Source: Thermoplasmatales archaeon
GTDB lineage: Archaea; Thermoplasmatota; E2; DHVEG-1
Assembly: GCA_041305025.1 (NCBI GenBank)
Contig: JBFYMG010000053.1
Location: forward strand, 308 to 64,307
Length of the DNA: 64,000 nt
Reading direction: 5' to 3'
The stretch's first letter is position 1. The number at the start of each line of letters is the position of its first letter. Both the position numbers and the translations under genes were made by a program. Under the pieces are notes generated by a model that did not search any database, was not told the DNA's origin, and was given only the letters and a program-made list of their open reading frames with translations. Below, one piece after another: positions 773 to 31,526 of this stretch.

Positions 773-1731
773 TAGATATGGTGCTTGTTTTTTCAGATGA
801 TAAAAAAATGATGTTGGAATTACTTGGAAAGGGCGCCGAAATTGCAAAAGAACTCAAACTAAAACTCAGTGCAGTAATTATAGGAAAAGATGACACCCTT
901 GCAAAAGAGTACATTTCGCATGGCGCTGAAAAGGTTTTTGTAGCTGAAACTGACCTGAATGCTTTCAAAGCCGAAGAATACACAGACATCTTAGGTGCAA
1001 TCGTGAAAGAGGCGGGTGCCGAGGTTGTTTTGATTGGTTCAAATAAGAATGGCAAAGAGCTTGCCCCAAGGCTTGCATCAAAATTGGGAACTGGATGTAT
1101 TACAGATTGCATAAAATTATATGTGAAAGATAAAAAGTTGACCGCGGAGCGCATAGTGTACAGTGGGAATGCAATTGTCGTTGAGCAGTTTAATACAAAG
1201 CCAAGTATTGTCACAGTTCCTTCCAAGGTTTTTGATCCATCACCAAAAGACAGTAAACACCACGGCGAAGTCGTCAAGAAGAAGTTTGATGTGAACAAAT
1301 CGGCCTCTCATATTGTTAAAGTTCAAGAGATGAAATCTGAGGGTGTAAACGTCGAAGATGCTGAGATAATTGTATCATGCGGAAGAGGCTTCAAAAGCAA
1401 AGATGACATAAAATTGGTTGACGGACTTGCAGGAGCTTTGAAAGGAAAAACAATTGGATGCTCACGTCCGATTGCCGCTGATCTAAAGTGGCTATCTGAA
1501 GATCACTGGATAGGGCTTTCAGGCCATAAGGTTAAACCCAAATTGTATGTGGCCGTTGGAATATCTGGTCAAATACAACATATTGCTGGAATGCGTGATT
1601 CTGATATCGTTGTTGCAATCAATAAGGACCCAGAAGCACTTATTTTCAAATCTGCTGACTACGGCATTGTCGGCGACTTGTACGAAATTGTACCGAAATT
1701 GACCAGTGCAATCAAGGAAAAAATGGGATAA
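769..1731 (+). CDS. etfA: Electron transfer flavoprotein, alpha subunit
   Basis: 320 aa. The C-terminal FAD-binding signature is present: VGISGQIQHIAGM...VVAINKDPEALIFKSADYGIVGDLYEIVP. It is translationally coupled to etfB. Confidence 0.9.
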   Translation: MIDMVLVFSDDKKMMLELLGKGAEIAKELKLKLSAVIIGKDDTLAKEYISHGAEKVFVAETDLNAFKAEEYTDILGAIVKEAGAEVVLIGSNKNGKELAPRLASKLGTGCITDCIKLYVKDKKLTAERIVYSGNAIVVEQFNTKPSIVTVPSKVFDPSPKDSKHHGEVVKKKFDVNKSASHIVKVQEMKSEGVNVEDAEIIVSCGRGFKSKDDIKLVDGLAGALKGKTIGCSRPIAADLKWLSEDHWIGLSGHKVKPKLYVAVGISGQIQHIAGMRDSDIVVAINKDPEALIFKSADYGIVGDLYEIVPKLTSAIKEKMG

Positions 1732-1794
1732 AATCTTATACTTGATCCCAGTTCGACGATTAGTATAAACTCTTTGCATAGAGGTTAGGTAGAC

Positions 1795-2325
1795 ATGAGT
1801 AGAGATGAGGATGGAAAACTAATTGCTGCCATTCCAAAAGACAAGATAGCTGATTTTATATCTCTTCATCTAAGTGATCTTTGGGCTGTAGACGGTTTGT
1901 ATTTTCTTGGCATAGAAGAAAAATTTGGTACGCAAGTCGCTACTGAAATTGATCGAAATGTTTGGGAAGTCATGGGAAAGATTGAGGCAAGACGATTAAA
2001 AGAATTTTTTGGAATAGAGGGTAATGACATTGCTTCGATGATAAAGGCGCTACGTTATAGTAGCTGGGCTTTGGATCTTGAAGATAAAGAAATCGAAATT
2101 AAAAAAGAAAGGACCATTGTTAGAAATGTTAGATGCCGTGTTCAGAATACACGTATCAAAAAAGGCCTTTCGGAATTTGGCTGCAAGCCTGTTAGATTTG
2201 GTTTTCTTAAGGCTTTTGCAAAAGAGTTTAATCCAGATATCATTGTTAATTGCAATGTTTGTCCGCCAGATAAACATCCTGATAATTTGTGGTGCGAATG
2301 GGAATTTAAAATGAAGGGGAAATAG
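1795..2325 (+). CDS. Hypothetical small Cys-rich protein (possibly ATC-hydrolase/DUF6125-like)
   Basis: 176 aa ORF that ends 2 nt before the next gene. The C-terminal part is Cys-rich (CRVQN...GCKP...NCNVCPPDKHPDNLWCEWEF). The family assignment is from memory only. Confidence 0.35.
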   Translation: MSRDEDGKLIAAIPKDKIADFISLHLSDLWAVDGLYFLGIEEKFGTQVATEIDRNVWEVMGKIEARRLKEFFGIEGNDIASMIKALRYSSWALDLEDKEIEIKKERTIVRNVRCRVQNTRIKKGLSEFGCKPVRFGFLKAFAKEFNPDIIVNCNVCPPDKHPDNLWCEWEFKMKGK

Positions 2326-2327
2326 AA

Positions 2328-3785
2328 ATGAAGACGGCTGAAGAGTATAAGAAGAATCTTAAACAGATGAGACCAAATATTTACAAGTTTGGTGAGCTAA
2401 TAAAAGATGTAACAAAGCATCCAGCAACAAGAAGAACCGTTGAAGGTCATGCACAGATATTTACAGCGAGTTTGAAGACAGAATATCAGGATATTCTCAC
2501 CACAAAATCCAGTTTGACTGGTGAGCGAATATCAAGATATCTCTCAATTCTTGGCAGTGCAGAGGACATGTACGCCAACGTTCGTATGAAGCGCCTGATG
2601 TTCAATCTCACAGGCACATGTACGGGAGGCAGATGTGCAGGTTTCAATGCCCTTAATGCCATGTGGGCAACAACTTACGACATAGACAAAGATTTAGGAA
2701 CGGACTATCACAAGCGACTACAAAATTGGCTGGAGGATGCACAGAAACAAGACATTACTCTCTCGGGTGCATTGACTGATCCCAAAGGAGATCGTTCAAA
2801 ACCACCTTCACTTCAGAGCGATCCTGATATGAGTTTGCGTATTGTAGAAGAAAAAAAAGATGGAATCGTAGTTCGTGGTGCAAAGGTGATGATATGCGGT
2901 GTTGCTGCAGCAAATGAGCTATTTGTAATGCCTGGCACGGGATATAAAGAGTCAGATAAGGATTACGCCGTTTCTTTTGTAATTCCGCGCGATATAGACA
3001 ACCTTACAATAATTGAGGCAAGAAGACCAAGCGATACAAGAGAGCAAGAAGAGGGTTTTGATATTCCCGTTGATATTGGTGGTATAACCCAAGCCTATAT
3101 CTTGTTTGAAGATGTTTTTATTCCAAAAGAACGAGTTTTTATGTGCAAAGAACACGCTTATACTACCCAAGCAGTTATGAATTTCATAGCACCTTATCGA
3201 GCTGCAATTGGTGGATGCGTCGCTGGCCAAGGCGATGTTATGATTGGTGCATCAGCTCTCATGGCACGTGCAAATGGTCTAAATGAAAAAACTTTTAAAG
3301 ATAAGATAAACCAGATGATTATAAACAATGAAACCACATTTGGAATGGGTATTGCTGCCAGTGCTCTTGGGCATAAACACCCATCGGGCGTGTGGATTCC
3401 AAATCTCCTGCTTTCCAACGTAAATAAGGTGCATGTTGCAACCTTACCCTATGAAACCAAAAGGTTAACTCAGGACATAACAGGAGGAATTGCTGAGACG
3501 GGATGCATTCCTTCATGCAAAGATCTTAACGATCCGAAATACGGAAAAATGTTGCAGAAATATCTAAAGGCAAACTGTAGTGGTGAATCAAGAGCAAAGA
3601 TTGCACGTCTTGTTGAGTGGCTTACAATTGGCGCGGGTGTTCCTGGCTGTATGCATGGTGGTGGTTCTCCGGATGGCGCAAAACTAATTATCAACATTAA
3701 TACCGACATTAACCGCTACATAGAACTTGCAAAAAGGCTGGCCGATATCAAAGAGGATATACAAGTGGAGCCTAAGAAAAAATAA
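2328..3785 (+). CDS. abfD: 4-hydroxybutyryl-CoA dehydratase / vinylacetyl-CoA isomerase family protein
   Basis: 485 aa. It is collinear with AbfD-type proteins: TCTGGRCAGFN (CX3C cluster ligands), LTDPKGDRSKPPS...LRIVEEKKDGIVVRGAK, GGCVAG. Confidence 0.85.
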   Translation: MKTAEEYKKNLKQMRPNIYKFGELIKDVTKHPATRRTVEGHAQIFTASLKTEYQDILTTKSSLTGERISRYLSILGSAEDMYANVRMKRLMFNLTGTCTGGRCAGFNALNAMWATTYDIDKDLGTDYHKRLQNWLEDAQKQDITLSGALTDPKGDRSKPPSLQSDPDMSLRIVEEKKDGIVVRGAKVMICGVAAANELFVMPGTGYKESDKDYAVSFVIPRDIDNLTIIEARRPSDTREQEEGFDIPVDIGGITQAYILFEDVFIPKERVFMCKEHAYTTQAVMNFIAPYRAAIGGCVAGQGDVMIGASALMARANGLNEKTFKDKINQMIINNETTFGMGIAASALGHKHPSGVWIPNLLLSNVNKVHVATLPYETKRLTQDITGGIAETGCIPSCKDLNDPKYGKMLQKYLKANCSGESRAKIARLVEWLTIGAGVPGCMHGGGSPDGAKLIININTDINRYIELAKRLADIKEDIQVEPKKK

Positions 3786-8905: not shown

Positions 8906-11290
8906 GTGAGTAGAAATAAAAAAATAGCAAAAATTTTTGGAGCTGCTGTTGTACTTCTTTTAATAACATCGATTTCCGTAGTTGCAATGAGAGTTAATCA
9001 ACAAAACGAAGGTATAGATCCTTTTTTCGTGGTAAATAATGCCGATGCATCAGTTATTGGCCTTACCGTTAATATTCCAACATTTGAATTTGGCAGTACG
9101 TATATGAACGGAAAAAATTTTGCAACAATAGAATTGCCTAACGAAGGATTTACAATTATCCAAGGTGAGGCACAGTTACCAACCTTGAAGAGAATGATTG
9201 AAATACCTCAAGGTGCAAAAGCAGATATTGTTGTCAAATCAGTATCATGGAGATACACTTCATTAAAAGAACTGGGCCTTCCGACAAGAATTGCACCAGT
9301 GCAACCATCTCTTGTTAAAATACCAGATGCAACACAGAAATTTGCTATTAATGAAAAATACTATTTAACAAATACATTTACGCCAAAGATTTTGGCAAAG
9401 ATAGTTGACAGTGGAGAGATAAGAGATAGATGTTTTGTGCTCATTGAAGTATCACCAGTACAGTACAACCCGGTAACTGGCAAACTTAAGATAATGACAT
9501 CATGTGAACTAAATATCAATTTATGCGGTAGCGACATGACAAAAACTATCCAAAAAATAGAGCGCTTTAGTACTCCAGCTTTTGAAGATATGTTAAAGAC
9601 GGTATTTCTTAACTATGGGTTCTATGAAAAAAATATTGCAATTAGCCCAAAAGATCAAGAAGGATATCTGATAATTACCTACGCTGACTTCTCGGACGAG
9701 ATTCAGCCTTTAGCTGATTGGAAAGAAAGCAAAGGTTTTGATACAACAGTAACGATGACGTCCGAAATTCCAGGTGGGCCAACGAAAGAAAACATCAAGG
9801 CATATATCGTAGATGCTTACAACAATTGGCCGATTCCACCTGCCTACGTTCTTCTGGTCGGCGATGTCGCACAAATTCCATCTTGGACTGGTTCAGCCAC
9901 AGGAACATGCACCGACTTGTACTACGTAACCATTGATTCTGGCAATTACTTTGCTGATCTTATTATCAGCCGTTTTCCTGCAGCTCTACCAGAACACGTC
10001 ACAGCCATGGTAGACAAAACCATCTACTATGAACAGGGTAGTTTCCCGTCAAGCGAATGGATAAAAAAAGCAGCTTTCATGGCTTCTGAGGATAACTATG
10101 ATATTTCTGAAGGAACACACAACTATGTTATAGACACGTATCTTACTCCAAATGGATACACGTGCGATAAACTCTACAGCCATACTTATGATGCGACTAC
10201 CCAACAGGTTACTGATGCATTAAATAACGGACGTAGTTTAGCAATCTACTCAGGGCACGGTGGAACTGATTACTGGGCTGATGGGCCGTACTTTGATCAA
10301 TCAAATGTCAATGCATTAACCAACGACGGAATGTATCCTTTTGTCTGTAGTCATGCCTGTGTGACTGGTACGTTTTCTTCTGCAGAATGTTTTGGAGAAA
10401 CGTGGCTACGTGCACCGCACAAAGCAGGACTTGCATTCTGGGGTGCTTCTGAATCTACATACTGGGATGAAGACGACATTCTAGAAAGAAGTATGTTCAA
10501 AGCATGGTGGGAAGACAACCTTGAAAACATTGGCGGTATGACAAATATGGCGCTCTACTATCTATATCAATACTACAGTGGTGGAGGAAGTACCCAATAT
10601 TACTTCGAAGCATATAATGTTCTTGGAGATTCATCGGTAAAAATATGGCGCAACAATCCAAGTGACGCACCAGCAACACCCGATAAACCAACTGGACCAA
10701 ACCACGGAATTTTAAACACAGAATATACTTTCTCAAGCAAAACAACAGAGCCAGATGGAGATCAAATCTACTACATGTTCAGCTGGGGCGATGGAACCTA
10801 CAGCGAGTGGATTGGACCATATGACTCAGGAACAACTGTAACTGATACACACTTTTGGTCAATAGTGGGAACATATGATGTAAAAGTAAGTGCAAAAGAT
10901 ACATATGGCGCACAAAGTGCTTGGTCAGTGCCTCTTACAATATCGATTGTTGATAACAATCCACCAGATACACCTACACTAAATGGTCCAGCAAGTGGAA
11001 AACCTGGTGTAGCATACCTTTACACATTTTCCACAATAGATCCTGAGGGAGACATTGTATACTACTTCGTCGACTGGGGCGATGGAACGGATAGTGGATG
11101 GCTCGGACCTCATCAGTCTGGCGCACAAGCATCAACCACCCATAGCTGGGATACACAAGGAACATATGCTGTAAAAGTCAAAGCAAAAGATGCGCAAGGT
11201 GACGAAAGCGACTGGGCAACTTTAGACGTAACTATGCCTTTAGAAATACAATGCAGTCAGTTATTACTTAGAATATTGAAACAACTTTAG
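8906..11290 (+). CDS. Secreted peptidase C25 (gingipain-like) with two C-terminal PKD-like modules
   Basis: 794 aa with a GTG start and a signal/anchor N-terminus. C25 hallmarks: VLLVGDVAQIP, DLYYV, ISRFP, a His in YSGHGG and a Cys in CSHACVTG. Two copies of about 90 aa carry the DWGDGT-type motif. Confidence 0.8.
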   Translation: MSRNKKIAKIFGAAVVLLLITSISVVAMRVNQQNEGIDPFFVVNNADASVIGLTVNIPTFEFGSTYMNGKNFATIELPNEGFTIIQGEAQLPTLKRMIEIPQGAKADIVVKSVSWRYTSLKELGLPTRIAPVQPSLVKIPDATQKFAINEKYYLTNTFTPKILAKIVDSGEIRDRCFVLIEVSPVQYNPVTGKLKIMTSCELNINLCGSDMTKTIQKIERFSTPAFEDMLKTVFLNYGFYEKNIAISPKDQEGYLIITYADFSDEIQPLADWKESKGFDTTVTMTSEIPGGPTKENIKAYIVDAYNNWPIPPAYVLLVGDVAQIPSWTGSATGTCTDLYYVTIDSGNYFADLIISRFPAALPEHVTAMVDKTIYYEQGSFPSSEWIKKAAFMASEDNYDISEGTHNYVIDTYLTPNGYTCDKLYSHTYDATTQQVTDALNNGRSLAIYSGHGGTDYWADGPYFDQSNVNALTNDGMYPFVCSHACVTGTFSSAECFGETWLRAPHKAGLAFWGASESTYWDEDDILERSMFKAWWEDNLENIGGMTNMALYYLYQYYSGGGSTQYYFEAYNVLGDSSVKIWRNNPSDAPATPDKPTGPNHGILNTEYTFSSKTTEPDGDQIYYMFSWGDGTYSEWIGPYDSGTTVTDTHFWSIVGTYDVKVSAKDTYGAQSAWSVPLTISIVDNNPPDTPTLNGPASGKPGVAYLYTFSTIDPEGDIVYYFVDWGDGTDSGWLGPHQSGAQASTTHSWDTQGTYAVKVKAKDAQGDESDWATLDVTMPLEIQCSQLLLRILKQL
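10670..10953 (+). repeat. PKD-like C-terminal module, copy A1
   Basis: PATPDKPTGP...EPDGDQIYYMFSWGDGTYSEWIGPYDSG...YDVKVSAKDTYGAQSAWSVPL. Confidence 0.7.
10960..11239 (+). repeat. PKD-like C-terminal module, copy A2
   Basis: NPPDTPTLNGP...DPEGDIVYYFVDWGDGTDSGWLGPHQSG...YAVKVKAKDAQGDESDWATLDVTMP. Confidence 0.7.
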
Positions 11291-11315
11291 GTTCTCAGTG
11301 AAAAACTAAGAACCT
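11289..11315. terminator. Hairpin plus T-rich tract between convergent genes
   Basis: AGGTTCT-(13 nt)-AGAACCT, followed by CTCTTATTTTCTTATTTTTT. It lies between the 3' ends of the C25 gene and the FG-GAP gene. Confidence 0.35.
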
Positions 11316-11364
11316 CTCTTATTTTCTTATTTTTTGTCACGGTTATTTTAGAAATTACTTTGAT

Positions 11365-12630
11365 TTAATTGTTCCCATTTGAAGATTCTTCCCAGCCGTA
11401 TTTGAAAACCCAAGACATAAAATCCTGTCCGTTATCGACGCCAACATTCCCCGCATTAATTTCGTTTTTACCGTCGTTGTCGCAGTCCCCGATGCTTATA
11501 ACTGCCATCCAGCCATAAGTGGGAAGTGTTGCCTCTTCAATGTATGTTATTCCATTCCATTGCAGTATGTGGGTAACACCGGCTCCAGCAACTACTTCCG
11601 GGATTCCGTCGTCATCAGTATCTCCAACATCAATTCCTTCGATGACCGGATCCCCGCCGGGCCAGGTGACATCAAATTGAGTCGCATAACCGGATCCATT
11701 CCATTTAAAAATGGTGATATGTGGATAATAATAGCTTACTAAAATCTCAGCATTCCCATCTCCATCGCAATCTTTACATACACAACCAAATGGTGTATCT
11801 TGTCCATGAGGTATATTAATGATTACAGTCGAATCAAAAACGTTGTTTTCTTCGTTCCATTTCAGAACTACAACTTTACCTGAACAAGCACAAACAATCT
11901 CATTTTGTCCATCATTGTCAACATCGCCTAGCCCCGGCATATATACGTAGCCATAACCAGGATCATCCCATTGAGCTATCTTAACTAGTCGAAATCCGTT
12001 CCATTTAAAGATTGCAATTTCGGGAATTGTACTTGAAGATCTCAATGGACCACCACTAACAATCAGTTCATTTTTTCCATCGTTGTTGCAATCTCCAATA
12101 TAGCAGTCAGCACTTCCGCCCCCATTCCTCAACAGCCAAGAATTCCAGCCAACTGTCCAGTATCTTCCCGCAATATATTTGTGAATGGCACAATACCAAG
12201 TAGCAGCAATCTCATTTTTTCCATCATTATTTAGATCCCCAATAGCAAAACCACCAGCATCCGCTCTTAGAATTGGATAAAACGGACAATGAAGTGCCTG
12301 GGTTTGAACGTAGGTTTTTTGATTTTGGTTCCATTCCATAACTCTTAGCATGGCATCTCTTCCGCCAATTAGCAGTTCATTTTTTCCGTCGTTATTGCAA
12401 TCACCAATAGGTTGAGGTCCTTCATAGCGCGCCCCATACATAGGACTAGAGCCATAACTCATCTGCCACTGAATGCCGTAATCATCACTAGAGTTGGTTA
12501 AAATCGACACATCACTTTTCTTGATATCTTTTGCTTTATTTTCATATGCACTTGCCATTCCGATTGAAACGATGACCAGACTTGCGATCAAAAATATTGC
12601 AGCTATCTTTTTCCTCATAAATTTCCCCAT
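11365..12630 (-). CDS. Secreted seven-blade FG-GAP/VCBS beta-propeller protein
   Basis: Seven Ca-binding-type repeats: GDCNNDGKNELLIGG, GDLNNDGKNEIAA, GDCNNDGKNELIVSG, GDVDNDGQNEIVCA, KDCDGDGNAEILVS, GDTDDDGIPEVVAG, GDCDNDGKNEINAG. Signal peptide present. The track start at 12636 is TTG, so ATG at 12630 or 12618 is more likely. Confidence 0.85.
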   Translation of the reverse strand: MGKFMRKKIAAIFLIASLVIVSIGMASAYENKAKDIKKSDVSILTNSSDDYGIQWQMSYGSSPMYGARYEGPQPIGDCNNDGKNELLIGGRDAMLRVMEWNQNQKTYVQTQALHCPFYPILRADAGGFAIGDLNNDGKNEIAATWYCAIHKYIAGRYWTVGWNSWLLRNGGGSADCYIGDCNNDGKNELIVSGGPLRSSSTIPEIAIFKWNGFRLVKIAQWDDPGYGYVYMPGLGDVDNDGQNEIVCACSGKVVVLKWNEENNVFDSTVIINIPHGQDTPFGCVCKDCDGDGNAEILVSYYYPHITIFKWNGSGYATQFDVTWPGGDPVIEGIDVGDTDDDGIPEVVAGAGVTHILQWNGITYIEEATLPTYGWMAVISIGDCDNDGKNEINAGNVGVDNGQDFMSWVFKYGWEESSNGNN

Positions 12631-12784
12631 CTTCAATATGTACGTTTCATATATTAAATTAACTAGTGTTAATCAATAGTGCAAAACGGAAATAAGACGA
12701 GTTAGAAATGTTTTTGTTCGGCTTTTTCCGAACATTTTCTGACCTTTTAAATACATTCGAAGACAATATAGTCTTGGCGATAAT

Positions 12785-13213
12785 ATGAAAGCAAATAAAA
12801 CAATAATAATATATGTAATGCTGGCGGTGGTTGCTTCCATTATAACAGGTACTGTGATTAGTGTTGCCCTTTCAGAGACGCCGATGAAGACTAACAATAA
12901 AACAATATACTTAACTGAGAAAGATAATGGTTCTACGATATCAGTAATAAAAGGAGATATGTTGAATCTAACGCTCCAAGACCATGGCGATGGTGGATAT
13001 ACATGGACCATTACTGAAATCGATGAAAAGACGCTAGGTCAAGTTGAGCAATTTAATTGGGGCAATTCCGGTGCACTCGGTGATTTTGGAAAAGATACCT
13101 GGATATTCTCTGCAAAAAATATTGGCACCACAACACTACAATTGGAATGTAAAAGACCATGGATCGGCGGAGATACGTCCGAGACGATAAGTATTACCAT
13201 AAAAGTCAATTAA
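12785..13213 (+). CDS. Chagasin-family (I42) cysteine peptidase inhibitor with N-terminal membrane anchor
   Basis: 142 aa. It is collinear with chagasin: NGSTISVIKGDMLNLTL, GDGGYTW (in place of NPTTGxxW), ALGDFG, KRPW (the RPW loop). Confidence 0.85.
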   Translation: MKANKTIIIYVMLAVVASIITGTVISVALSETPMKTNNKTIYLTEKDNGSTISVIKGDMLNLTLQDHGDGGYTWTITEIDEKTLGQVEQFNWGNSGALGDFGKDTWIFSAKNIGTTTLQLECKRPWIGGDTSETISITIKVN

Positions 13214-13376
13214 GAACATGATATCAACACGATACTTTCCTCTTTTTTTCTTTTTTAAACTTTTTTTAAAATTAGAGTATTATTTCTAATATTTTTCTTA
13301 TTTCTAATCAAGAGCATCATTTAATTAACAAGTGTTTATTAATGAGTTGTTGTATTATAGTTTGGGTGGTTATCTT

Positions 13377-15596
13377 ATGAATAAAAGTAGTAAAAGATTA
13401 TTGAGGAGTTGGACGCCTTTTTTTGTTGTTTTGGCCATGGTGCTAATGTCATTTTCTACTTTGGCACAGGTTAGTCAGATGCCGTTGAATAGTAGTATGC
13501 AACTGACATATTCTTTTCAAAGTCCGACGATTGAGACCGTTGATATAGCAGGAACAATTTATGACAGAGTTACACTAACCGATTGCTATACATCAGGAAA
13601 TACGGGTGAACCCAAGTTACCATCAAAGGGAGCATACATTCTGCTACCTCCAAAGTCAAAAGTCAGTAAAATAAGTATTATTGTTGGAGAAAAAACTGTC
13701 ATTGGAACAGAGTTCTATGTGGAGCCGATTGAACAATCGATTCCAACTTCACAATCTGAAAACTTTCCGATACCAACCCCAAATGAAGTTGTCTATCAAT
13801 CCAATGCACCTTATCCTGGAAAGTTATACACTCAAGTCGGTGTTTATGGTTTTAGAGGATACCAGATAATAGTTCTTCTATTACATCCAGTTCAATACAA
13901 TCCAGTAACAGGTGAACTCTGTTATTATAAAAGCTTGAAAGTTTCAATTGAGACTGTAAATACGGGCATACAGTCAGAATTATTTAGAGGCCTAGAACAA
14001 GATAAAAATGAGGTAACGCAAAAGGTTGACAACCCAAATATGGCCATGAGATACCGGATAGCATCTACACCAACCATTGCTACGATGGAGGACTATGATC
14101 TTCTAATAATTACCACTGACTCTTTAAAAAGTGGTTTTGTACCTTTGAAAGAAGCGCATGAAGCAAAAGGCGTTATGACGGTAATTAAAACTCTTACTGA
14201 TATCGGCAGTAGTAATCTTGATAGTATCCGTAACTACATTAGTGATGCCTATACGAATTGGGGAGTAAAATACGTTTTGATTGGTGGTGATTCAAACATC
14301 GTTACTGCCCCAATATTATGGGTTTCTGGAATGGATGAAGAGACCACCTACTACGAAGATTACATGCCATCTGATCTTTACTATGCATGTCTCGATGGAC
14401 CATACAACTACGATGGTGATGATAAGTGGGGTGAACCAAATGATGGAGCAGATGGTGGAGATGTCGATCTTATAGCCGAAGTTTATGTTGGTCGTGCATG
14501 CGTCGACACTGCAACTGATGTTACTAATTTTGTCACAAAAACTGTTGCATATATCAATAAAAATCCGGATGATGAATATCTTAAAAAGATTTTACTGGCG
14601 GCAGAATATCTTGGCGATTATGGCATCGCAAGCTATGGTGGAACGTACATGGACCAACTTGAAGACGGTTCAACAGATGACGGATATACAACAGTCGGTA
14701 TTCCTTCTGATAACTACACCATTTCTAAACTGTACGATTCGCCAAGTTACTACTGGGATCCATCAGAACTAATGGCCATTATAAACAGCGGAGTACACAT
14801 AGTAAATCATCTTGGGCACGCATCATATGATTACAATATGAAAATGTATTCTTCCGATGTTAGTTATCTTACTAACGATGACACCTGTTTTATCTATTCT
14901 CAAGGATGCATGGCCGGTGGGTTTGACGATCCATGGGGATATGATTGTATAGCTGAAGAGTTTACTGCAAAAACCAGCCATGCTGCATTTGCTGGCATAT
15001 GGAACGCTCGCTATGGTTTCTTCTGGTCATATAGTACGGATGGAGATTCACAAAGACTCCACCGACAATTTTGGGATGCAGTATTTGGTGAAGGAATACC
15101 AGAAATCGGAAGAGCAAATCATGATTCAAAAGAAGATAATATCCCAATTATTGGCCGATCATGTATACGCTGGGTCTATTACGAGACAAACCTCTTTGGC
15201 GATCCTGCTCTTGGTTTTTACGAAAGTGAAACACCGCCACCACCAAATAATCCTCCAGAAAAACCCAGCAGACCATCAGGCGAAACTTCAGGGGAAATTG
15301 GTGTACAATATCTATATACAACAAGCACAACAGACCCTGATGGAGATCAATTATTCTACATGTGGGATTGGGGTGAAGGAAACCTTAGCAACTGGATAGG
15401 GCCAACTGCTTCAGGTTCAACAGCGAGCGCAAGTTACACCTGGGCTCAGAAAGGAAACTACAACATAAGAGTAAAAGCAAAAGACATTTATGGTGCAGAG
15501 AGTGACTGGTCTGATCCATTAGCTATCTCTATGCCTCTGGATTTGAATATACAAATTATTCAACAACAATATCATATGATTCTGAGAAATCACTGA
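13377..15596 (+). CDS. Secreted peptidase C25 (gingipain-like) with one C-terminal PKD-like module
   Basis: C25 hallmarks: VLIGGDSNIV, DLYYA, YVGRA, a His in NHLGHAS and a Cys in YSQGCMAG. The likely start is ATG 13377 (MNKSSKRLL...), preceded by GGTGG. The track ORF begins at 13332. Confidence 0.8.
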   Translation: MNKSSKRLLRSWTPFFVVLAMVLMSFSTLAQVSQMPLNSSMQLTYSFQSPTIETVDIAGTIYDRVTLTDCYTSGNTGEPKLPSKGAYILLPPKSKVSKISIIVGEKTVIGTEFYVEPIEQSIPTSQSENFPIPTPNEVVYQSNAPYPGKLYTQVGVYGFRGYQIIVLLLHPVQYNPVTGELCYYKSLKVSIETVNTGIQSELFRGLEQDKNEVTQKVDNPNMAMRYRIASTPTIATMEDYDLLIITTDSLKSGFVPLKEAHEAKGVMTVIKTLTDIGSSNLDSIRNYISDAYTNWGVKYVLIGGDSNIVTAPILWVSGMDEETTYYEDYMPSDLYYACLDGPYNYDGDDKWGEPNDGADGGDVDLIAEVYVGRACVDTATDVTNFVTKTVAYINKNPDDEYLKKILLAAEYLGDYGIASYGGTYMDQLEDGSTDDGYTTVGIPSDNYTISKLYDSPSYYWDPSELMAIINSGVHIVNHLGHASYDYNMKMYSSDVSYLTNDDTCFIYSQGCMAGGFDDPWGYDCIAEEFTAKTSHAAFAGIWNARYGFFWSYSTDGDSQRLHRQFWDAVFGEGIPEIGRANHDSKEDNIPIIGRSCIRWVYYETNLFGDPALGFYESETPPPPNNPPEKPSRPSGETSGEIGVQYLYTTSTTDPDGDQLFYMWDWGEGNLSNWIGPTASGSTASASYTWAQKGNYNIRVKAKDIYGAESDWSDPLAISMPLDLNIQIIQQQYHMILRNH
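15252..15536 (+). repeat. PKD-like C-terminal module, copy B
   Basis: PPEKPSRPSG...DPDGDQLFYMWDWGEGNLSNWIGPTASG...YNIRVKAKDIYGAESDWSDPLAISMP. Confidence 0.7.
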
Positions 15597-15632
15597 AATA
15601 CCAGCAGTTATCCGACATGTAACTTACAAAAT

Positions 15633-16175
15633 CTACCATTTATCATAGCGTACGATTTCATCCAAATTCTTTCTTTTTCTACCTCTAGTAAATATCTTTG
15701 TTAAACTGCCTAATATTCCAATCTTTTCAGCTGGATACCCGAGAGGAATGAGTGCCACGACTCTGATTCTATTTGGAATTCCAAGGATTTCTTTAACTTT
15801 TTTTTCGTCAAAACCGGCATTCCAACAGCTTCCCAAACCAGCGTCAGTAGCAGCAAGAATAAGATTTTCCGTGGCAATTGCAACATCAACTGTGTAGTAT
15901 TCAATATCATTATGAGTGCCACTTGATTCAGGATCACCGCACGCGACTATGACAACCGGTGCAGTTTTCAGCCATCGGTTAATGATGCTTGTTTTAGACA
16001 GGGCTTTAATGGCTTCTTTGTCCCTTACAACAATAAAACGCCAACATTGTTTGTTCACCCAGGAAGGTGCCCATCGTGCGCATTCAAGAACGTACTTTAT
16101 CTTTTCTTCATCTACTTCTTTATCGCTATAATTGCGAATGCTTGTACGGGATTTTATTACATCTGAAAATTCCAT
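15633..16175 (-). CDS. Nitroreductase-family FMN oxidoreductase
   Basis: 180 aa. TSIRNYSDKEVDEEKIKYVLECARWAPSWVNKQCWRFIVV is the typical nitroreductase N-terminal region. Confidence 0.85.
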   Translation of the reverse strand: MEFSDVIKSRTSIRNYSDKEVDEEKIKYVLECARWAPSWVNKQCWRFIVVRDKEAIKALSKTSIINRWLKTAPVVIVACGDPESSGTHNDIEYYTVDVAIATENLILAATDAGLGSCWNAGFDEKKVKEILGIPNRIRVVALIPLGYPAEKIGILGSLTKIFTRGRKRKNLDEIVRYDKW

Positions 16176-16302
16176 TGCGACGCCTCCACCGTTGTTACTT
16201 CAGCTGTAATCATTCTTTCTTTATTAAAATATTTTTAATCACAAAAAATCGTTTATATTAGCACATATATTATGATATTACATTTCGGTGGAGGTAAAGG
16301 TT

Positions 16303-18432
16303 ATGAAGAAAATATTGACGGTAGGAGTTTTGTTTATTTTATTAATACCTGCATTTTCGACCACACATATTTTCGCAAGAACTGAAAATAACGTGGATGA
16401 CGAAGTATCGACAGATCATAGTAGTTTGGACAATTTTGTGGTGTTTATGAAAGAGGGTTTGATGCCTTCTATTCCAGATGACTTTGAAGCTCAGTGCATT
16501 AAGAAAACATACATGGTTCCAATGCGCGATGGAATAAAACTAGCAACAGATGTGTACCTGCCGATTTTACAAATTAAACAACACGGTAGCGTTTTACTAC
16601 GCACACCATATAATAAAAGTGACATAGCTATCGTTGGTTACATATTTGCTTTCCTGGGCTGGCCAACAGTTATCCAAGATATGCGAGGTCGTTACGAATC
16701 TGGTGGAAATGATACAGTCTACCGCAATGATCACACTGATGGGCCAGATACATTACAATGGATTGGGACACAAGAATGGTCAAATGGCAAAGTAGCTACA
16801 GTCGGGCCATCAGCACTAGGGATAGTACAATATTTGATGGCTGGTGAAAATCCACCTGAGCTTGCATGCCAGGCAATAATGGTTGCTTCACCAAATCTAT
16901 ACAAAACCGCAATTTATCAGGGTGGACAGTTCAGAAAAGAGCTAGTAGAAAGATGGCTAGCAGGACAAGACGCTGAATTCATGCTACCGGAAATCTGGGA
17001 TAACGAAAACTACACACTTGATTTTTGGACCAATGTATCACTAGATGACAACTGGCCTGATGTAAACGTACCAGCCATACATTTCGGCGGATGGTACGAT
17101 CCATTCCAACAAGGTATAACAGAGGGATACAACGGCTACCAACATCTCGCAGGACCAGGAGCCCAAGGAAAATCCATGCTAATAATGGGGCCGTGGTACC
17201 ACGATGGATACATAACAACCAAACAAGGACAACTAGTCTACCCGGAGAACTCACTATGCTGGTTTGCTGTAGAGATATATCTGCAGATGATAAAAAAATA
17301 TACGATGAACGAAAACAACCATTTTGACGACTACTCAAAAGTCTATTATTATACTATGGGTGATGCCAATACAATTGATGCACCAGGAAACGAATGGAGA
17401 ACTGCAAACGACTGGCCAATACCAGCAACAAACACACCATGGTACCTACATGATAATGGTTTGCTAGACACAAACTACCAAAGTGACTACGAACCAATAA
17501 CATATCAATACAACCCGACAAATCCAGTGCCAACACTTGGTGGACAAGTACTAGAAATTCCGCCAGGGCCATACGACCAAACACCATTAGAAAACAGGGA
17601 GGATGTCCTCGTTTTTACAAGCCCAGTTCTAACAGAACCTTATGAAGCTACGGGACCAATAAAAGCAAAAATATATGTTTCATCTGATTGCGTTGACACG
17701 GATTTCACAGTAAAACTCACAGATGTTTATCCAGATGGTCGCTCAATGATAATAACGGACGGAATACTACGGATGAGAAACAGAAACGGACAAGACCATT
17801 GGGAATTCATGCAACCTGGAGAAATATACGAGATAAACATAGACATGTGGAGTACATCTTACATATGGAACACGGGACACAAAATAAGAGTAGCAGTTTC
17901 ATCATCAAACTACCCAAAGTTTCTAAGCAATCCAAACACAAATGACCCAATATACAAAAACATAACATACAACATTGCACACAACACTCTATACATAGAC
18001 GGCCAACACCCATCATGCATAATCCTACCAGAAATAGAACAAAGCCCATCTAGCAACCCACCAGAAAAACCAAACAAACCAACAGGTAGAACACACATCA
18101 AAGTTAATCAGATCTACAAATATTCAAGCTCTGCAAACGACCCAGATGGAGACCAGATTTATCTTTTATTTGACTGGGATGACGGAACAAGCAGTGGATG
18201 GATAGGACCATACAATTCAGGCGAACCAGTAACAGCAAAACACAAATGGACAACAAAAGGCAACTACGAAATACGAGTAAAAGCAAAAGACATAAATGGA
18301 ACACAGAGCGAATGGTCAGATCCTATGGTTATCAGCATGCCAAAGGACAGAGGAATGTTAGGGTCTTTGTTGCTAAAATTATTAGAAAGATTTCCGCGTT
18401 TGTTTCCATTTCTAAGGAATATGTTCATTTGA
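16303..18432 (+). CDS. Secreted CocE/NonD-family (S15, X-Pro dipeptidyl-peptidase-like) hydrolase with C-terminal PKD-like module
   Basis: MRDGIKLATDVYLP...LLRTPYNK, and a nucleophile-type GPSALG motif. Signal peptide MKKILTVGVLFILLIPAFS. GGAGGT precedes ATG 16303. The track ORF starts at GTG 16288. Confidence 0.85.
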   Translation: MKKILTVGVLFILLIPAFSTTHIFARTENNVDDEVSTDHSSLDNFVVFMKEGLMPSIPDDFEAQCIKKTYMVPMRDGIKLATDVYLPILQIKQHGSVLLRTPYNKSDIAIVGYIFAFLGWPTVIQDMRGRYESGGNDTVYRNDHTDGPDTLQWIGTQEWSNGKVATVGPSALGIVQYLMAGENPPELACQAIMVASPNLYKTAIYQGGQFRKELVERWLAGQDAEFMLPEIWDNENYTLDFWTNVSLDDNWPDVNVPAIHFGGWYDPFQQGITEGYNGYQHLAGPGAQGKSMLIMGPWYHDGYITTKQGQLVYPENSLCWFAVEIYLQMIKKYTMNENNHFDDYSKVYYYTMGDANTIDAPGNEWRTANDWPIPATNTPWYLHDNGLLDTNYQSDYEPITYQYNPTNPVPTLGGQVLEIPPGPYDQTPLENREDVLVFTSPVLTEPYEATGPIKAKIYVSSDCVDTDFTVKLTDVYPDGRSMIITDGILRMRNRNGQDHWEFMQPGEIYEINIDMWSTSYIWNTGHKIRVAVSSSNYPKFLSNPNTNDPIYKNITYNIAHNTLYIDGQHPSCIILPEIEQSPSSNPPEKPNKPTGRTHIKVNQIYKYSSSANDPDGDQIYLLFDWDDGTSSGWIGPYNSGEPVTAKHKWTTKGNYEIRVKAKDINGTQSEWSDPMVISMPKDRGMLGSLLLKLLERFPRLFPFLRNMFI
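18058..18341 (+). repeat. PKD-like C-terminal module, copy C
   Basis: PPEKPNKPTG...DPDGDQIYLLFDWDDGTSSGWIGPYNSG...YEIRVKAKDINGTQSEWSDPMVISMP. The nucleotide string GAGTAAAAGCAAAAGACAT is shared with copy B. Confidence 0.7.
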
Positions 18433-19770: not shown

Positions 19771-21585
19771 ATGAAAAAGTTGTTACCGTTATTTGTAGTA
19801 GGAATTTTGGTCCTTAGTGGACTTGGAGCTGTTTCTATAAGCAATAAAACAACCAATGATTTGAAAATCAAGACAGAATCAATTGCTATTTCTGAACCTG
19901 CCATCAAAGATGCAGGCCAATATGTGACATTAATTCTAGAAGAAGCAGCATCATCTCTTTTAGATTCTGGAAAACCCGTGCTGCCTGCTTTAACAAAGGT
20001 GTTTACCTTTCCATTTGGAACAAAAATTAGTAGTGTTGATGTGAGTTTTTCTGAAACAAATGAACTAGTTTTGTCAAAAGAAGTTAAGCCTACAGCCGAA
20101 CCGGTTCCAGTAGGCTCAAAGGTAGCAAATGAACCGATAAAAGATACGACAGTATATGGAAGCGCAGAGCTGTATCCGGCCACAAGTTATAGTTATACCA
20201 CCGGAGCAGGTTTGGACGGCAAAGATCACGTTGTTTATCTTGCTGTACAATGTTATCCTGTTAGATATTCTCCTGCTAAAAACACTATTTATTATAGTGA
20301 AAGCGCTGAAATCCAAGTAACCTATGAAGAACCCGCGACTCCAACAGTATTTTCTGATCAGTATGATCTCGTTATTATATCCCCTTCTGAATTTTCAAAC
20401 GAACTACAACCTTTGATTGATCACAAGATCAATATGGATGTCAATACCATACTGAAGACGACCGAGGACATATATTCGGAGTATAACGGTTTTGATCAGG
20501 CTGAAAAAATAAAATACTTTATTAAAGATGCAATTGAAACCTGGGGTGCAGAGTATGTTCTGCTTGTTGGAAGAGTTGATAAGTTACCCATCAGAACCAC
20601 ATGGTTTCATGCAAGACACCACGAACATTATTGGAATGAAACCGTTCTATCTGATCTTTACTATGCTGACATATACGATACAAATGGGGACTTTTGTAGC
20701 TGGGATTCCAATGGAAATGGCTTGTACGGGGAAATTTATGAGGATTGCCCTGGTGTAGAAGATATATTTGACCTTTATCCGGATGTTAACGTCGGTCGTT
20801 TGCCCTGCGAAAAGAATTCAGAAGTTAGAGTAGTTGTTAATAAGATAATAAACTATGAAACAGGCACCTTTGGTAAGAGCTGGTTCAATAACATAATTCT
20901 CGTAGGAGGCGATACATTCCCAGGTTGGAATGGAAATGAAGGTGAAGAAAAAAACCTGATTACAGAACAAATAATGTCAGAGTTTACACCAATAAAATTA
21001 TGGACTTCCGACGGCACATTTAATGCACGGTCACTAAATAAGGCAATAAATAGAGGTGCTGGATTTATTGATTATTCTGGCCATGGCTTTGAGATAGGAG
21101 TTGCTACCCATCCGCCAGAAAGTAGCGATACGGATTGGGTGGCTTATCACACTAACAATCTTCTAGGCGCTATGAATGGAAATAAGCTCCCCATTGTCTT
21201 CTTTGATGCCTGTCTAACTGCAAAACTTGATTTCAATTTTTCTGAACTTGTAGGCTATGGCGCCAAAAATTTACAGCCCATCGTAAATAAATTTAGTAAG
21301 ATAGCGTCTAAGCTTATTCCCACTTTTGCATGGTGCATAGTGAGAAAGAGTAATGGTGGTGCTATCGCAACTATAGGTGCTACTAGGACAGCCTTTGGAG
21401 GTATAGATAGTGGTGCCGGTTATATATCGCTCCGCTTTTTTGAGGCTTATTCAACTAGTGAAACAGTGTCTCAGATGTTGACAAAAGCACAGAATGATTA
21501 CATCACATATATCCCGTTTGATCGCTTTACTGTTGAAGAATTCATCCTCATAGGAGATCCGAGCCTAAAGATAGGGGGATACTAA
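19771..21585 (+). CDS. Secreted peptidase C25 (gingipain-like), no PKD-like module
   Basis: 604 aa with a signal peptide. YVLLVGRVDKLP, DLYYADIYD, NVGRLP, a His in YSGHGFE and a Cys in FFDACLTA. Confidence 0.75.
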   Translation: MKKLLPLFVVGILVLSGLGAVSISNKTTNDLKIKTESIAISEPAIKDAGQYVTLILEEAASSLLDSGKPVLPALTKVFTFPFGTKISSVDVSFSETNELVLSKEVKPTAEPVPVGSKVANEPIKDTTVYGSAELYPATSYSYTTGAGLDGKDHVVYLAVQCYPVRYSPAKNTIYYSESAEIQVTYEEPATPTVFSDQYDLVIISPSEFSNELQPLIDHKINMDVNTILKTTEDIYSEYNGFDQAEKIKYFIKDAIETWGAEYVLLVGRVDKLPIRTTWFHARHHEHYWNETVLSDLYYADIYDTNGDFCSWDSNGNGLYGEIYEDCPGVEDIFDLYPDVNVGRLPCEKNSEVRVVVNKIINYETGTFGKSWFNNIILVGGDTFPGWNGNEGEEKNLITEQIMSEFTPIKLWTSDGTFNARSLNKAINRGAGFIDYSGHGFEIGVATHPPESSDTDWVAYHTNNLLGAMNGNKLPIVFFDACLTAKLDFNFSELVGYGAKNLQPIVNKFSKIASKLIPTFAWCIVRKSNGGAIATIGATRTAFGGIDSGAGYISLRFFEAYSTSETVSQMLTKAQNDYITYIPFDRFTVEEFILIGDPSLKIGGY

Positions 21586-23550: not shown

Positions 23551-26136
23551 TCAGTTACTTATCTTTTGATGTACCGATTGCCGTTTCTTACGTCTTTGCG
23601 TTACTGCCTTAAGAATTTCAAACCATACAACACTAACTATTCCAGCAACGAGGCAGATTATTATATCGATCCAATGTAGCGCAGAGAATTTGAACAGCCC
23701 GCGAAGGAAAGGAATGAGGAGCACCAAGCCAAGAAAAACCAATGCTCCTGCTACTACAACCCAGAGTGCATTATTTTTTGATCGCAAGGTCCCTAGTATA
23801 GTACGAGACCACGAACGGTTTGTAAAGATGAGACCAAGGTTTGCAATGACAAGAGTTGTAAACGTCAAAGCACGTGCATCCTCTTCACCTTGCCCTCGAG
23901 ATATTGCTATGCAGTATACAATTAGAAGAATAGCAAGAACACTAAAACCTTGAAACATACTTACCAGAAGAGTACGTTTGTTAAATAATGGCTCTTTCGA
24001 ATTTCGTGGTGGCCGTTTCATTACATCTGATTCTTCTGGTTCTGCTTCAAACGCTACAGAACAAGATGGATCTATAACCAATTCAAGAAATACGATATGA
24101 ACCGGGAAAAGAATAAGAGGCCAATTAAATAAAATAGGTATAACCGACAGGCCTGCAATTGGAATATGAACTGCAATAATATAGCTCATCGCTTTTTTGA
24201 TATTATCGTAAATCCGCCGTCCCATCCTCACAGCCTGTACAATGAATGAAAAATCATCATCTAGAAGTACAATCGACGATGATTCTCTTGCCACATCAGT
24301 TCCGCGACCGCCCATTGCTATACCAATATGTGCAGATTTCAGTGCAGGAGCATCGTTCACTCCATCACCAGTCATCGCAACAATTTCACCATTCTCTTTC
24401 AGGGAATTTACGATACGGAGTTTTTGCTCTGGCACTACCCGTGCGCAAACATTCACATTTCGTATCCGCTCTTGAAGCTCTGCGTCATTCATCGCGTTGA
24501 GTTCAGGACCTGTCAGTATGTTATCATAATTTTTTAAACCGATTTCCTTTGCAATGCTCTGGGCAGTACCAGGATAATCTCCAGTGATCATAATAACTCG
24601 CATACCGGCAGCATAACATTCTACAACTGCCTCTGGCACGCTCGGACGAACTGGATCGACAAATCCAATTAAACCAACAAATTCAAACTTAAAATCATGT
24701 TGCTTGTCAGGAAGATCAGTTTTCTTGAAATACGCCTTTGCAACCCCTATGATCCGAAGGCCTTCAGCAGCCATTGAACTAATTTGCTTTGAAAGCTCTT
24801 GCATTTGCTTTTTATTGAAATGACACAAATCTGCAATTGCTTCAGGTGCTCCTTTTGCAGCAATGATGTACTCTTTTCCATCTGGAGAACTCATCACATG
24901 AGACATCGCAAGTAACTCTCTTGACAAAGGATACTCCTGTACAACCACCCAATCTTTATGGATATGTTCGGTGTTTGAAAGAGTGGTATCGCCAACTTGT
25001 TTCAACGCTTTTTCCATGGGATCAAACGGTTCTTTTTTGCTGGCAAGTATTCCAAATTCTACAAGCTCATGAAAAGCCTCAGGCAAAGCCTGTTTTTCTT
25101 CAGCGATATTATGAAACTTGCCATTAGCATAAATCTTTCGAACGGACATGCGGTTCATTGTAAGTGTTCCAGTCTTATCTACACAGAGAACAGTTGCTGC
25201 ACCGAGTGTTTCAATAGCAGGAATACGACGAGCCAATGCATTATTTTTCGAAAGCCGCCATGCACCTAGTGCAAGAAAGATAGTTAAAACAACCGGGAAT
25301 TCCTCAGGTAGAATTGCCATAGCAAGAGTGATACCTGCCAAAAATCCATTAACCCAACTGTTAGAATCAGTGGCCATTCTAGTCAAGCCATATCCAACAA
25401 CAACGACAACACAGAGAATGAAACCTATTATTGCCAAGTTTTTGACAAATTTTCTAGTTTCTTTTTGAAGTAGGGTATCCTCAGTTTCAAGTGTCTGTAA
25501 TGCTTTACCAATCTTGCCCATCTCTGTTTGCATTCCAATTTCCAATACCTTTGCAATTCCTTGACCACCAACAACCAAAGTCCCTGAATATATGAATGGA
25601 AGATCGTCACCGCCAGGTGTGGTTTTTTGCATGGATCCATCCCATTGTAGTTTTCGAACAGGAGCGGATTCGCCGGTGAGCAAAGATTCGTCTACCGATA
25701 AATGGCTGCTAGATAGAATCACCGCATCAGCAGGCACGCGATCCCCTTCAGACATAACAAGAATATCGCCTCTAACTACTTCACGACCAGGAATTCTTTT
25801 CTGTTGGCCGTCTCTAATGACCGAAGCACGAGGGCTCGATAGGTCGCGAAGGGCTTCAAGAGCACGTTCGGTTTTTCTTTCCTGGTACAATGTGATTCCT
25901 ATAATGACAAATACAAAGCCCAGGAGCATTAGAGCTTCTTCTTTTTCTCCTAAAAATAGATACAGTGTGCCTGCAGCAATTAGCAACAAAAACATTGGTT
26001 CGCGTACAACTTCAAATGCAATAGCCAATGTACTTCTTTTCTTTGAGGAAGGGAGTTCGTTATAGCCATCTTTTAGTATTCTCTCGGCCACCTCTTTTCC
26101 AGATAGCCCTTTATAATCTTTGATTTCATTGACCAT
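23551..26136 (-). CDS. P-type cation-transporting ATPase (P2, Ca2+-ATPase-like)
   Basis: 861 aa. CVDKTGTLT phosphorylation motif, TGDGVNDAPALK hinge, PEEFP in TM4, and 10 predicted TM-type segments. Confidence 0.9.
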   Translation of the reverse strand: MVNEIKDYKGLSGKEVAERILKDGYNELPSSKKRSTLAIAFEVVREPMFLLLIAAGTLYLFLGEKEEALMLLGFVFVIIGITLYQERKTERALEALRDLSSPRASVIRDGQQKRIPGREVVRGDILVMSEGDRVPADAVILSSSHLSVDESLLTGESAPVRKLQWDGSMQKTTPGGDDLPFIYSGTLVVGGQGIAKVLEIGMQTEMGKIGKALQTLETEDTLLQKETRKFVKNLAIIGFILCVVVVVGYGLTRMATDSNSWVNGFLAGITLAMAILPEEFPVVLTIFLALGAWRLSKNNALARRIPAIETLGAATVLCVDKTGTLTMNRMSVRKIYANGKFHNIAEEKQALPEAFHELVEFGILASKKEPFDPMEKALKQVGDTTLSNTEHIHKDWVVVQEYPLSRELLAMSHVMSSPDGKEYIIAAKGAPEAIADLCHFNKKQMQELSKQISSMAAEGLRIIGVAKAYFKKTDLPDKQHDFKFEFVGLIGFVDPVRPSVPEAVVECYAAGMRVIMITGDYPGTAQSIAKEIGLKNYDNILTGPELNAMNDAELQERIRNVNVCARVVPEQKLRIVNSLKENGEIVAMTGDGVNDAPALKSAHIGIAMGGRGTDVARESSSIVLLDDDFSFIVQAVRMGRRIYDNIKKAMSYIIAVHIPIAGLSVIPILFNWPLILFPVHIVFLELVIDPSCSVAFEAEPEESDVMKRPPRNSKEPLFNKRTLLVSMFQGFSVLAILLIVYCIAISRGQGEEDARALTFTTLVIANLGLIFTNRSWSRTILGTLRSKNNALWVVVAGALVFLGLVLLIPFLRGLFKFSALHWIDIIICLVAGIVSVVWFEILKAVTQRRKKRQSVHQKISN

Positions 26137-29200: not shown

Positions 29201-29260
29201 TCCAGCAATCCCACCGCCGACAACGGCAACCGCTCCAATCTTGTCAGATTTATGTGTCAT
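26213..29260 (-). CDS. Double HdrA-like flavoprotein (two HdrA-type FAD modules in one 1015-aa chain)
   Basis: Module 1: [27 protein letters not shown]...[15 protein letters not shown]. An internal HdrA N-domain motif, [15 protein letters not shown], lies at about aa 455. Module 2: [28 protein letters not shown]. Several CX2CX2CX3CP ferredoxin motifs. Confidence 0.85.
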   Translation of the reverse strand: [1015 protein letters not shown]

Positions 29261-29266
29261 ATCTCT

Positions 29267-29932: not shown

Positions 29933-29933
29933 G

Positions 29934-31052: not shown

Positions 31053-31062
31053 AATTCATCTC

Positions 31063-31521: not shown

Positions 31522-31526
31522 CTATC

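Follow-up and report, generated by a model that had tools for sequence, protein, structure and literature searches.

In a stretch of 64,000 nucleotides from a Thermoplasmatales archaeon (GCA_041305025.1, contig JBFYMG010000053.1, positions 308 to 64,307; called the window throughout), two C25 peptidases (proteins A and B) and one S15 hydrolase (protein C) end in a PKD module of known type, followed by a short tail. Judged from sequence, the tail of protein C is a divergent member of a widespread and apparently undescribed, lineage-specific tag, a C-terminal element of about 30 residues with a helix-kink-helix layout; tails A and B are truncated relatives. The consensus of the tag reads P-[KR]NK..-FLxxLLE[RN][FH]PxxFPILRxLLG[LY]-COOH. 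The PKD module was known before; apparently new is the tail, probably a C-terminal tag of the sorting or anchoring type, present on hundreds of unrelated secreted proteins.

A profile search with module C and its tail revealed 820 relatives. Almost all of the 128 that were retrieved are closed by a tail of 25-35 residues, and most of these tails, which include KNKVINTPFLRFLENHPHMFPLLRQFLRL and YSYNPIQLFLELLFQRFPNAFPILRHLLGY, fit one motif. From 271 unique canonical tails the consensus ..phi-phi-[EQ]-[RN]-[FH]-P-[NH]-[AL]-F-P-[IL]-L-R-[QH]-L-L-G-[LY]-COOH was obtained, and 216 of them end exactly 14 residues past the first FP. The tag consists of a short basic/aromatic linker ([KR]NK.. or YSY..), a Leu/Phe-rich amphipathic helix ending in E-[RN], an [FH]-P-x-x-F-P kink and a short second helix, I-L-R-x-L-L-G-[LY], which mostly forms the very end of the protein. 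A profile restricted to the tail (31 positions, with no PKD residues except the final P) was then compared with 1.84 billion cluster representatives (50% identity). It matched 975 of them at E ≤ 1e-3, and the best 150 all end within about 6 residues of the C-terminus. In 80 related loci, every match to the hidden Markov model (HMM) of the tail above 24 bits ends 0-5 residues before the stop codon. A further homologue search with tail-centred 44-mers yielded only fragments of ≤77 residues, several of them with PKD remnants.

In the codons of the tag, third positions are 46% identical, as compared to 82% at positions 1 and 2, and switches between CTN and TTR for Leu and between CGN and AGR for Arg are used freely. 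Because synonymous sites vary while the peptide is conserved, selection acts at the peptide level and a conserved DNA element is excluded. This argues against the view that nothing special is encoded here and that the tail is either a translated DNA element, such as a terminator or a recombination site, or a variable extension of a generic PKD domain. We regard this view as barely credible; its second form gains from the nature of the module and loses by the distribution of the tag, as described below.

The module is an ordinary PKD domain (PF00801/PF18911) with a known and solved fold. An HMM of the four copies, searched against the six-frame translation of the window, matched exactly those four which a preliminary description had placed at the C-termini of the two C25 peptidases and the S15 hydrolase, and nothing else; Pfam and the same HMM also agreed with that description in finding no module in a third C25 peptidase and in a propeller protein of the window. 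The copies are about 97 residues long, show 43-54% pairwise identity and carry a WDFGDG-like signature (SWGDG, DWGDG, DWGEG and DWDDG). Pfam cut-offs were passed by protein A (PKD, 50.4 bits with a cut-off of 23.5; PKD_4, 46.4 with 27), by protein B (PKD_4, 30.0 with 27) and marginally by protein C (PKD, 23.9 with 23.5; PKD_4 below cut-off). AlphaFold2 modelled module C with its tail as a beta-sandwich with a predicted local distance difference test score (pLDDT) of 97-98 over the module. Its best PDB neighbour according to Foldseek is 4XED (E 9e-13, 42% identity, root mean square deviation 1.3 Å, target-normalised TM-score 0.93), which was also matched by sequence (E 1.3e-20). This entry is the PKD domain of an M14-like peptidase from the Thermoplasmatales archaeon SCGC AB-540-F20, an archaeon of the MBG-D group (Marine Benthic Group D). 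It shares with the module the fold, the DWGDG-type signature and the use as a C-terminal spacer on secreted hydrolases; no essential difference was seen.

The deposited 4XED chain stops at ..LEVTMPK, the point at which the tails start, and the module therefore folds without the tail. AlphaFold2 models of a window tail and of a canonical tail each showed two helices split by the proline kink, with block-mean pLDDT of only 60-78, so that no confident packing of the tail onto the PKD domain was obtained. The idea that the tail is part of the PKD fold is not supported, given these values in both models and the occurrence of the tag without PKD. Hence, the proposal that module plus tail form a sorting signal had to be divided: the shared C-terminal element is real, but the tag resides in the tail alone, the module being a PKD domain of generic type. 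A generic module is what the extension view expects, but the PKD subfamily is almost always C-terminal and its tails are conserved; moreover, the unpacked tail and the crystallised domain that is complete without it both speak against a mere extension. The identical nucleotide run reported for copies B and C was recovered as the 19-nt sequence GAGTAAAAGCAAAAGACAT, which occurs exactly twice, at 15469 and 18275, with 0 occurrences expected, and covers only the codons of the conserved RVKAKDI. Gene conversion between modules B and C was considered and rejected (DNA identity 62%, third positions 51%, longest identical run 19 nt).

The tag is autonomous and the PKD module a spacer that can be separated from it, since the same tail is also found behind CARDB-like, FG-GAP, Laminin_G and other domains. 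Of 145 newly retrieved sequences among the 150 best-scoring ones, 37 have no PKD upstream, some of them being short fragments or retaining PKD remnants. Full-length carriers without PKD bear the tag after an FG-GAP_2 propeller, a Laminin_G_3 lectin domain, unassigned domains or a CARDB-like domain that reads ..FTGEVKIVNSEDPxDxCxIxVSLxTP-. As a comparison of protein P0164 with P0001 shows, different domains can precede the entire unit, in which the [KR]NK linker is included; a restriction of the tails to one PKD lineage was checked for and is not the case. These carriers likewise contradict the extension view. One protein only, P0129 (693 residues), has an internal copy of the tag (425-448) besides the terminal one (664-693); it appears to have arisen from two neighbouring tag genes by read-through fusion.

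Conversely, 133 proteins with this PKD subfamily were sorted by what follows the module. A canonical tag was present in 69 and another short, Leu/Phe-rich helical tail in 44, an extra CARDB-like domain of about 100 residues in 11, a transmembrane-type tail in two and other arrangements in seven. The 11 CARDB-like domains (GPxIEI..GG.F.I.A.IKN.G...) stand after PKD in place of the helical tail, for example in L045:9619-11577, L047:871-2277 and L071:186-1871 (minus strand). Homologues of the third C25 peptidase of the window differ in this respect: those in L018, L022, L034 and L051, from four other genomes (37-38% identity), carry PKD and a canonical tail, whereas the one in L072 (51% identity) has neither. 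The PKD-tail unit has thus been gained or lost within one peptidase family.

The cargo of the tag was surveyed in 56 full-length proteins from the related loci. C25 (9 proteins), fn3 (7) and NosD/beta-helix domains (6) were counted; others are C1, C13, M14, S15, beta-lactamase, BspA-type leucine-rich repeat, PQQ propeller, metallophosphatase and arylsulfotransferase domains. Of 61 tag proteins, 56 have a hydrophobic segment at the N-terminus. Since the cargo has signal peptides and extracellular-type domains, the tag would act outside the cell. In a scan of species-representative genomes, the best 80 of at least 499 matches were classified and proved to come almost all from Thermoplasmatota metagenome-assembled genomes (MAGs), including SM1-50, UBA33 and LFW-68_2. 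Named sources in the databases are likewise almost all Thermoplasmatota, and one representative comes from the MBG-D single-cell genome SCGC AB-540-F20. Among these best 80, nine tag loci belong to MAG CAYGVY01, five to LFW-68_2 and three to four to each of several other genomes. Tag genes are also often neighbours: several loci have 2-5 of them, for example L005 and L039 (three each) and L067 (five). No relatives turned up among viral contigs.

The three window tails represent this family unequally. They follow the final M-P of the proteins as described before, with lengths of 16, 19 and 29 residues, and end in ..KQL, ..RNH and ..NMFI (A, B and C, respectively). Tail C is matched by the tail HMM with 32.0 bits up to one residue before the stop; in the AlphaFold2 model its two helices span residues 104-116 and 120-128, and the block-mean pLDDT in the tail region is 64-78. 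Tails A and B align with helix 1 of canonical tails only and stop before the [FH]P kink, and tail A is not among the tail-HMM matches of ≥12 bits. Short tails of this kind recur in the metagenomic proteins P0019, P0021, P0025 and P0028 (Q-rich). A second half of the tail lost by frameshift was looked for in the DNA downstream of the stops of proteins A and B and is not there. Directly after the stop of protein A stands an inverted repeat, GGTTCT..AGAACC, with a run rich in T behind it; the whole resembles an intrinsic terminator and is unusually clear for an archaeal sequence.

Both short tails are poorly conserved with respect to their nearest homologues, and in L080 the closest homologue of protein B (53% identical) ends in another divergent tail. 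Together with the terminator-like hairpin, this is what the view that nothing special is encoded can claim in the window. For the canonical tag, found in 975 clusters by the tail alone with the best matches all C-terminal, that view is refuted; it may hold for tails A and B only.

The composition of the tag points to its chemistry. Tag tails contain 33% Leu+Phe and about 0.6% Asp, and canonical tails have a median Wimley-White interfacial energy of -2.9 kcal/mol, as compared to +1.4 for control C-termini. The 44 non-canonical tails have the same composition and a likewise favourable interfacial energy, and because even they share these properties, a physico-chemical role is suggested. The hydrophobic helices would have to be buried in something, and by analogy the position of the tag appears to parallel that of known surface-anchoring signals. 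With slightly better than even confidence, we propose that the tag serves the surface retention or sorting of exported proteins, with non-covalent association favoured. The tag is appended to many unrelated Sec-exported enzymes and binding proteins of MBG-D/Thermoprofundales-like Thermoplasmatota, with the PKD beta-sandwich as spacer or stalk; the hydrophobic faces of the two helices would partition into the membrane interface or dock on a surface receptor, and the retained enzymes would free their hydrolysis products next to the cell. Interfacial energies are +1.5 kcal/mol for tails A and B and -2.2 for tail C; weak or no binding is predicted for A and B, and both of these enzymes may be released. 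The preliminary idea of a sorting or attachment element is therefore partly supported: it fits an element conserved beyond the window, strictly C-terminal and borne by unrelated cargo, but it does not hold for the PKD module, and two of the three window tails are truncated.

Several observations weigh against retention by simple association. Conservation is position-specific (E, R, P, F, P, R, G) and the C-terminal end is fixed; conservation of this strength at particular positions would sooner be expected of recognition by a protein than of mere binding to lipids. Just one of the three window tails, tail C, matches the conserved tag, and the restriction to Thermoplasmatota is drawn only from 80 genome matches, the best of at least 499, and from a few named database entries. 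Furthermore, inspection of the window and of the surroundings of the 80 related loci (about 10 kb on each side) revealed no gene for a partner, a receptor or a processing enzyme. Clustering of 825 neighbouring genes from these loci and the window revealed housekeeping synteny only (ABC ATPase, Lrp-like regulator, nitroreductase, FEN-1, ornithine carbamoyltransferase). As the genes of sorting enzymes mostly lie far from those of their cargo, this absence is uninformative.

Because conservation and the fixed free C-terminus point to protein recognition, two further readings stay serious. The tail may be what a dedicated processing enzyme recognises; this enzyme, either a transpeptidase of the sortase type or a protease for C-terminal processing, would cleave near the MP/KNK junction and link the protein covalently to a lipid, a glycan or a surface polymer. 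This would be a new kind of signal, functionally analogous to PGF-CTERM with ArtA or to the C-terminal domain (CTD) of the type IX secretion system (T9SS) with PorU. We consider it unlikely, though the strict position, the fixed register, the highly conserved specific residues and the many functionally unrelated cargo proteins per genome all suit it, and the tail occupies the same slot after PKD as tails of the Heimdall/Loki-CTERM type. The terminal L-G-[LY]-COOH also resembles the hydrophobic-x-hydrophobic C-terminal ligands of PDZ domains. Known sortase, exosortase and archaeosortase signals have a transmembrane helix and a basic cluster, neither of which is present here; conservation peaks at the extreme C-terminus rather than in a motif upstream of a hydrophobic segment, and neither the window nor the 80 loci offer a candidate enzyme. 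The C25 proteins of the window reach 43-74 bits with the PorU model NF033707 (cut-off 420), which is generic C25 similarity only. An as yet undiscovered sorting or attachment system specific for Thermoplasmatota, in which a dedicated enzyme or receptor recognises the free ..FPILRxLLG[LY]-COOH, is a doubtful but conceivable case; candidates for recognising the tag end are a C25/PorU-like transpeptidase and a C-terminal processing protease bearing a PDZ domain.

Alternatively, the tail may be a docking or oligomerisation peptide whose hairpins bundle or bind a scaffold, giving multi-enzyme complexes comparable to the cellulosome with its dockerins and cohesins. The very hydrophobic helices have only a narrow polar stripe and would need burial, which would suit such a role, as would the sequence-specific conservation and the many different hydrolases tagged, often from adjoining genes. 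We nevertheless judge it decidedly improbable, as no repeat protein of the scaffold type was seen in the neighbourhoods and the tail is unlike dockerin or any PDB chain.

The setting of proteins A, B and C is summarised in the following table.

Features of the window (positions refer to the 64,000-nucleotide stretch)
Feature	Position	Strand	Evidence or remarks
Gene row: ETF (electron transfer flavoprotein) beta, ETF alpha, DUF6125 protein, HpaB-family (4-hydroxyphenylacetate 3-hydroxylase-like) protein	5-3785	+	
Nitroreductase and CBS protein	within 8.9-21.6 kb		
Protein A, secreted C25 (gingipain-family) peptidase, 794 aa: signal peptide, C25 propeptide, C25 catalytic domain, two PKD modules, short tail	8906-11290	+	Open reading frame; Pfam: Peptidase_C25 8.4e-68, Propeptide_C25 4.7e-17, PKD/PKD_4 two stretches each
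PKD module A1, internal copy, ends ..TISIV	10652-10951	+	HMM domain score 156.9
PKD module A2, terminal copy, ends ..LDVTMP	10952-11239	+	Pfam PKD_4 on residues 687-776
Tail A, LEIQCSQLLLRILKQL, truncated variant, first helix of tag only	11240-11287	+	
Inverted repeat and T-rich run	11291-11345		
FG-GAP propeller, no module	11365-12636	-	
Chagasin-family I42 peptidase inhibitor, 142 aa, N-terminal hydrophobic segment	12785-13213	+	Between C25 peptidase genes
Protein B, secreted C25 peptidase, 754 aa (739 aa from ATG at 13377): one PKD module, short tail	13332-15596	+	Pfam: Peptidase_C25 1.6e-55, PKD_4 5.3e-07
PKD module B	15246-15536	+	HMM of the four copies
Tail B, LDLNIQIIQQQYHMILRNH, truncated Q-rich variant, first helix only	15537-15593	+	
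Protein C, secreted S15 / CocE-NonD hydrolase, 714 aa: one PKD module, tag-type tail	16288-18432	+	TIGR00976 CocE_NonD 1.2e-104
PKD module C	18052-18342	+	HMM; AlphaFold2; Foldseek
Tail C, KDRGMLGSLLLKLLERFPRLFPFLRNMFI, divergent tag member: helix, FPxxFP kink, second helix	18343-18429	+	
Third C25 peptidase, 604 aa, no PKD module, no tail	19771-21585	+	Comparison protein
P-type cation ATPase	23551-26136		Adjoins Hdr-like cluster
Large Hdr-like gene cluster	26213-39453	-	
890-aa protein: CoA_binding, Succ_CoA_lig, ATP-grasp_5 (ADP-forming acyl-CoA synthetase-like), C-terminal GNAT acetyltransferase	45374-48046	+	

All four hydrolases, namely proteins A, B and C and the third C25 peptidase, have N-terminal segments like signal peptides. 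Window genes are 62-65% identical to genes of the Thermoplasmatota MAGs with tag loci, so that the window belongs to an archaeon related to these; an exact-sequence look-up of protein C returned no record. Classical targets of I42 inhibitors are papain-like C1 peptidases, and the inhibitor in the window may shield the cell from exoproteases of its own or of its neighbours.

The remaining window encodes ETF, an HpaB-like protein, transporters, a radical SAM enzyme, CBS and Hdr-like proteins. The gene row at its beginning suggests an acyl-CoA or amino-acid fermentation module. The Hdr-like cluster comprises HdrA-like flavoprotein fusions (1015 and 1505 residues) and FlpD/MvhD, FrhB-like, ferredoxin-like and CCG-domain (HdrB/C-like) subunits. 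The 890-residue protein has the architecture of bacterial Pat-type protein acetyltransferases.

Thermoplasmatota of the MBG-D/Thermoprofundales type are among the most abundant archaea of marine sediments, and their C25 and other peptidases, which are highly transcribed (PMC6461988), are regarded as drivers of detrital protein degradation. It is an open question by what means a cell that grows slowly secures the return on exoenzymes that are costly to make, and here the tag offers a concrete and testable handle. It would also serve annotators as a simple marker of the surface-associated proteome in this lineage, to which Pfam and NCBIfam are currently blind. If an undiscovered sorting system did exist, the tag would be a new class of C-terminal sorting signal without a transmembrane segment, and dozens of exoenzymes would be fixed or assembled on the surface of these sediment archaea. 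A genomic study of Thermoprofundales found C25 and PKD peptidases among the most transcribed genes and does not mention the tail (PMC6461988).

A literature search by motif and for Thermoprofundales peptidases, PKD, C-terminal anchors and PGF-CTERM likewise revealed no description of the tail. Window and canonical tails alone, searched against Pfam and NCBIfam at E ≤ 10, gave no match except a chance one to WH_Egal (14.7 bits), and when the tail profile was compared with PDB sequences, the sole outcome was a chance match of 15 residues to ProQ (E 0.049).

Known sorting signals are outlined in two reports as tripartite, with a signature motif, a transmembrane helix and a basic cluster (PMC6219818, PMC11980579). 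With PGF-CTERM/archaeosortase A, Heimdall-CTERM, Loki-CTERM, LPXTG, PEP-CTERM and GlyGly-CTERM the tag shares its shortness, its place at the extreme C-terminus of signal-peptide proteins, a large number of unrelated cargo proteins in each genome and its confinement to certain lineages. It differs in lacking a transmembrane helix, the middle of the tail being occupied by E, R, two P and R, and in lacking a basic cluster at the end, as canonical tails end in LLG[LY]; its most conserved motif, FPILRxLLG[LY]-COOH, lies at the very end and not upstream of a hydrophobic stretch, and no curated CTERM model matches. The window tails are moderately amphipathic, with a maximum 19-residue Kyte-Doolittle mean of ≤1.0, which is not transmembrane-like; their amphipathic character and their difference from signals of the PGF-CTERM type, both noticed earlier, were thereby borne out.

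Both kinds of ending occur in these genomes. The same PKD module in related loci is sometimes followed by ..TPGFELIFVICAIAALIVLWKKKRNV, a transmembrane-type tail. The tail of this type in L009 passes the Heimdall-CTERM (31.5 bits, cut-off 24) and Loki-CTERM (26.1, cut-off 19.9) models, whereas the helical tails gave no match in the same scan. As both follow the same PKD module, transmembrane-type and helical tails share one architectural slot. An ending made up of ..TPGFE[LV]I, then a hydrophobic helix and then a K/R cluster was seen in proteins of L009:4469-5104 and L043:3976-4956 (both minus strand), where it comes after the same PKD module, and in L003, L011, L025, L032, L058 and L066; the organisms are not Asgard archaea.

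The analogy to the T9SS CTD, which had been suggested for the module, turned out to be weak: full-length proteins matched no T9SS CTD model of NCBIfam, and the PKD domain is not terminal here but followed by the tail. What the two have in common is an Ig-like domain near the C-terminus of gingipain-family peptidases and the presence of C25 proteins in the same genome. Archaea are not known to have an outer membrane or a T9SS. Dockerins resemble the tag as small C-terminal modules on many different extracellular hydrolases; they are duplicated calcium-binding segments of about 60-70 residues, whereas the tag has no such segments, no Pfam dockerin match at E ≤ 10 and no cohesin-like scaffold in sight.

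A further comparison is with E. coli PBP5 and PBP6, periplasmic enzymes with C-terminal amphipathic-helix membrane anchors. There is no homology, and the tag differs in its two helices, its conserved double-proline kink, a conservation stronger than is usual for lipid-binding helices and its archaeal setting, in which membranes may be tetraether monolayers. The likeness, which is functional only, lies in a short C-terminal amphipathic helix without a transmembrane segment on an exported enzyme, for which favourable partitioning into the interface is predicted.

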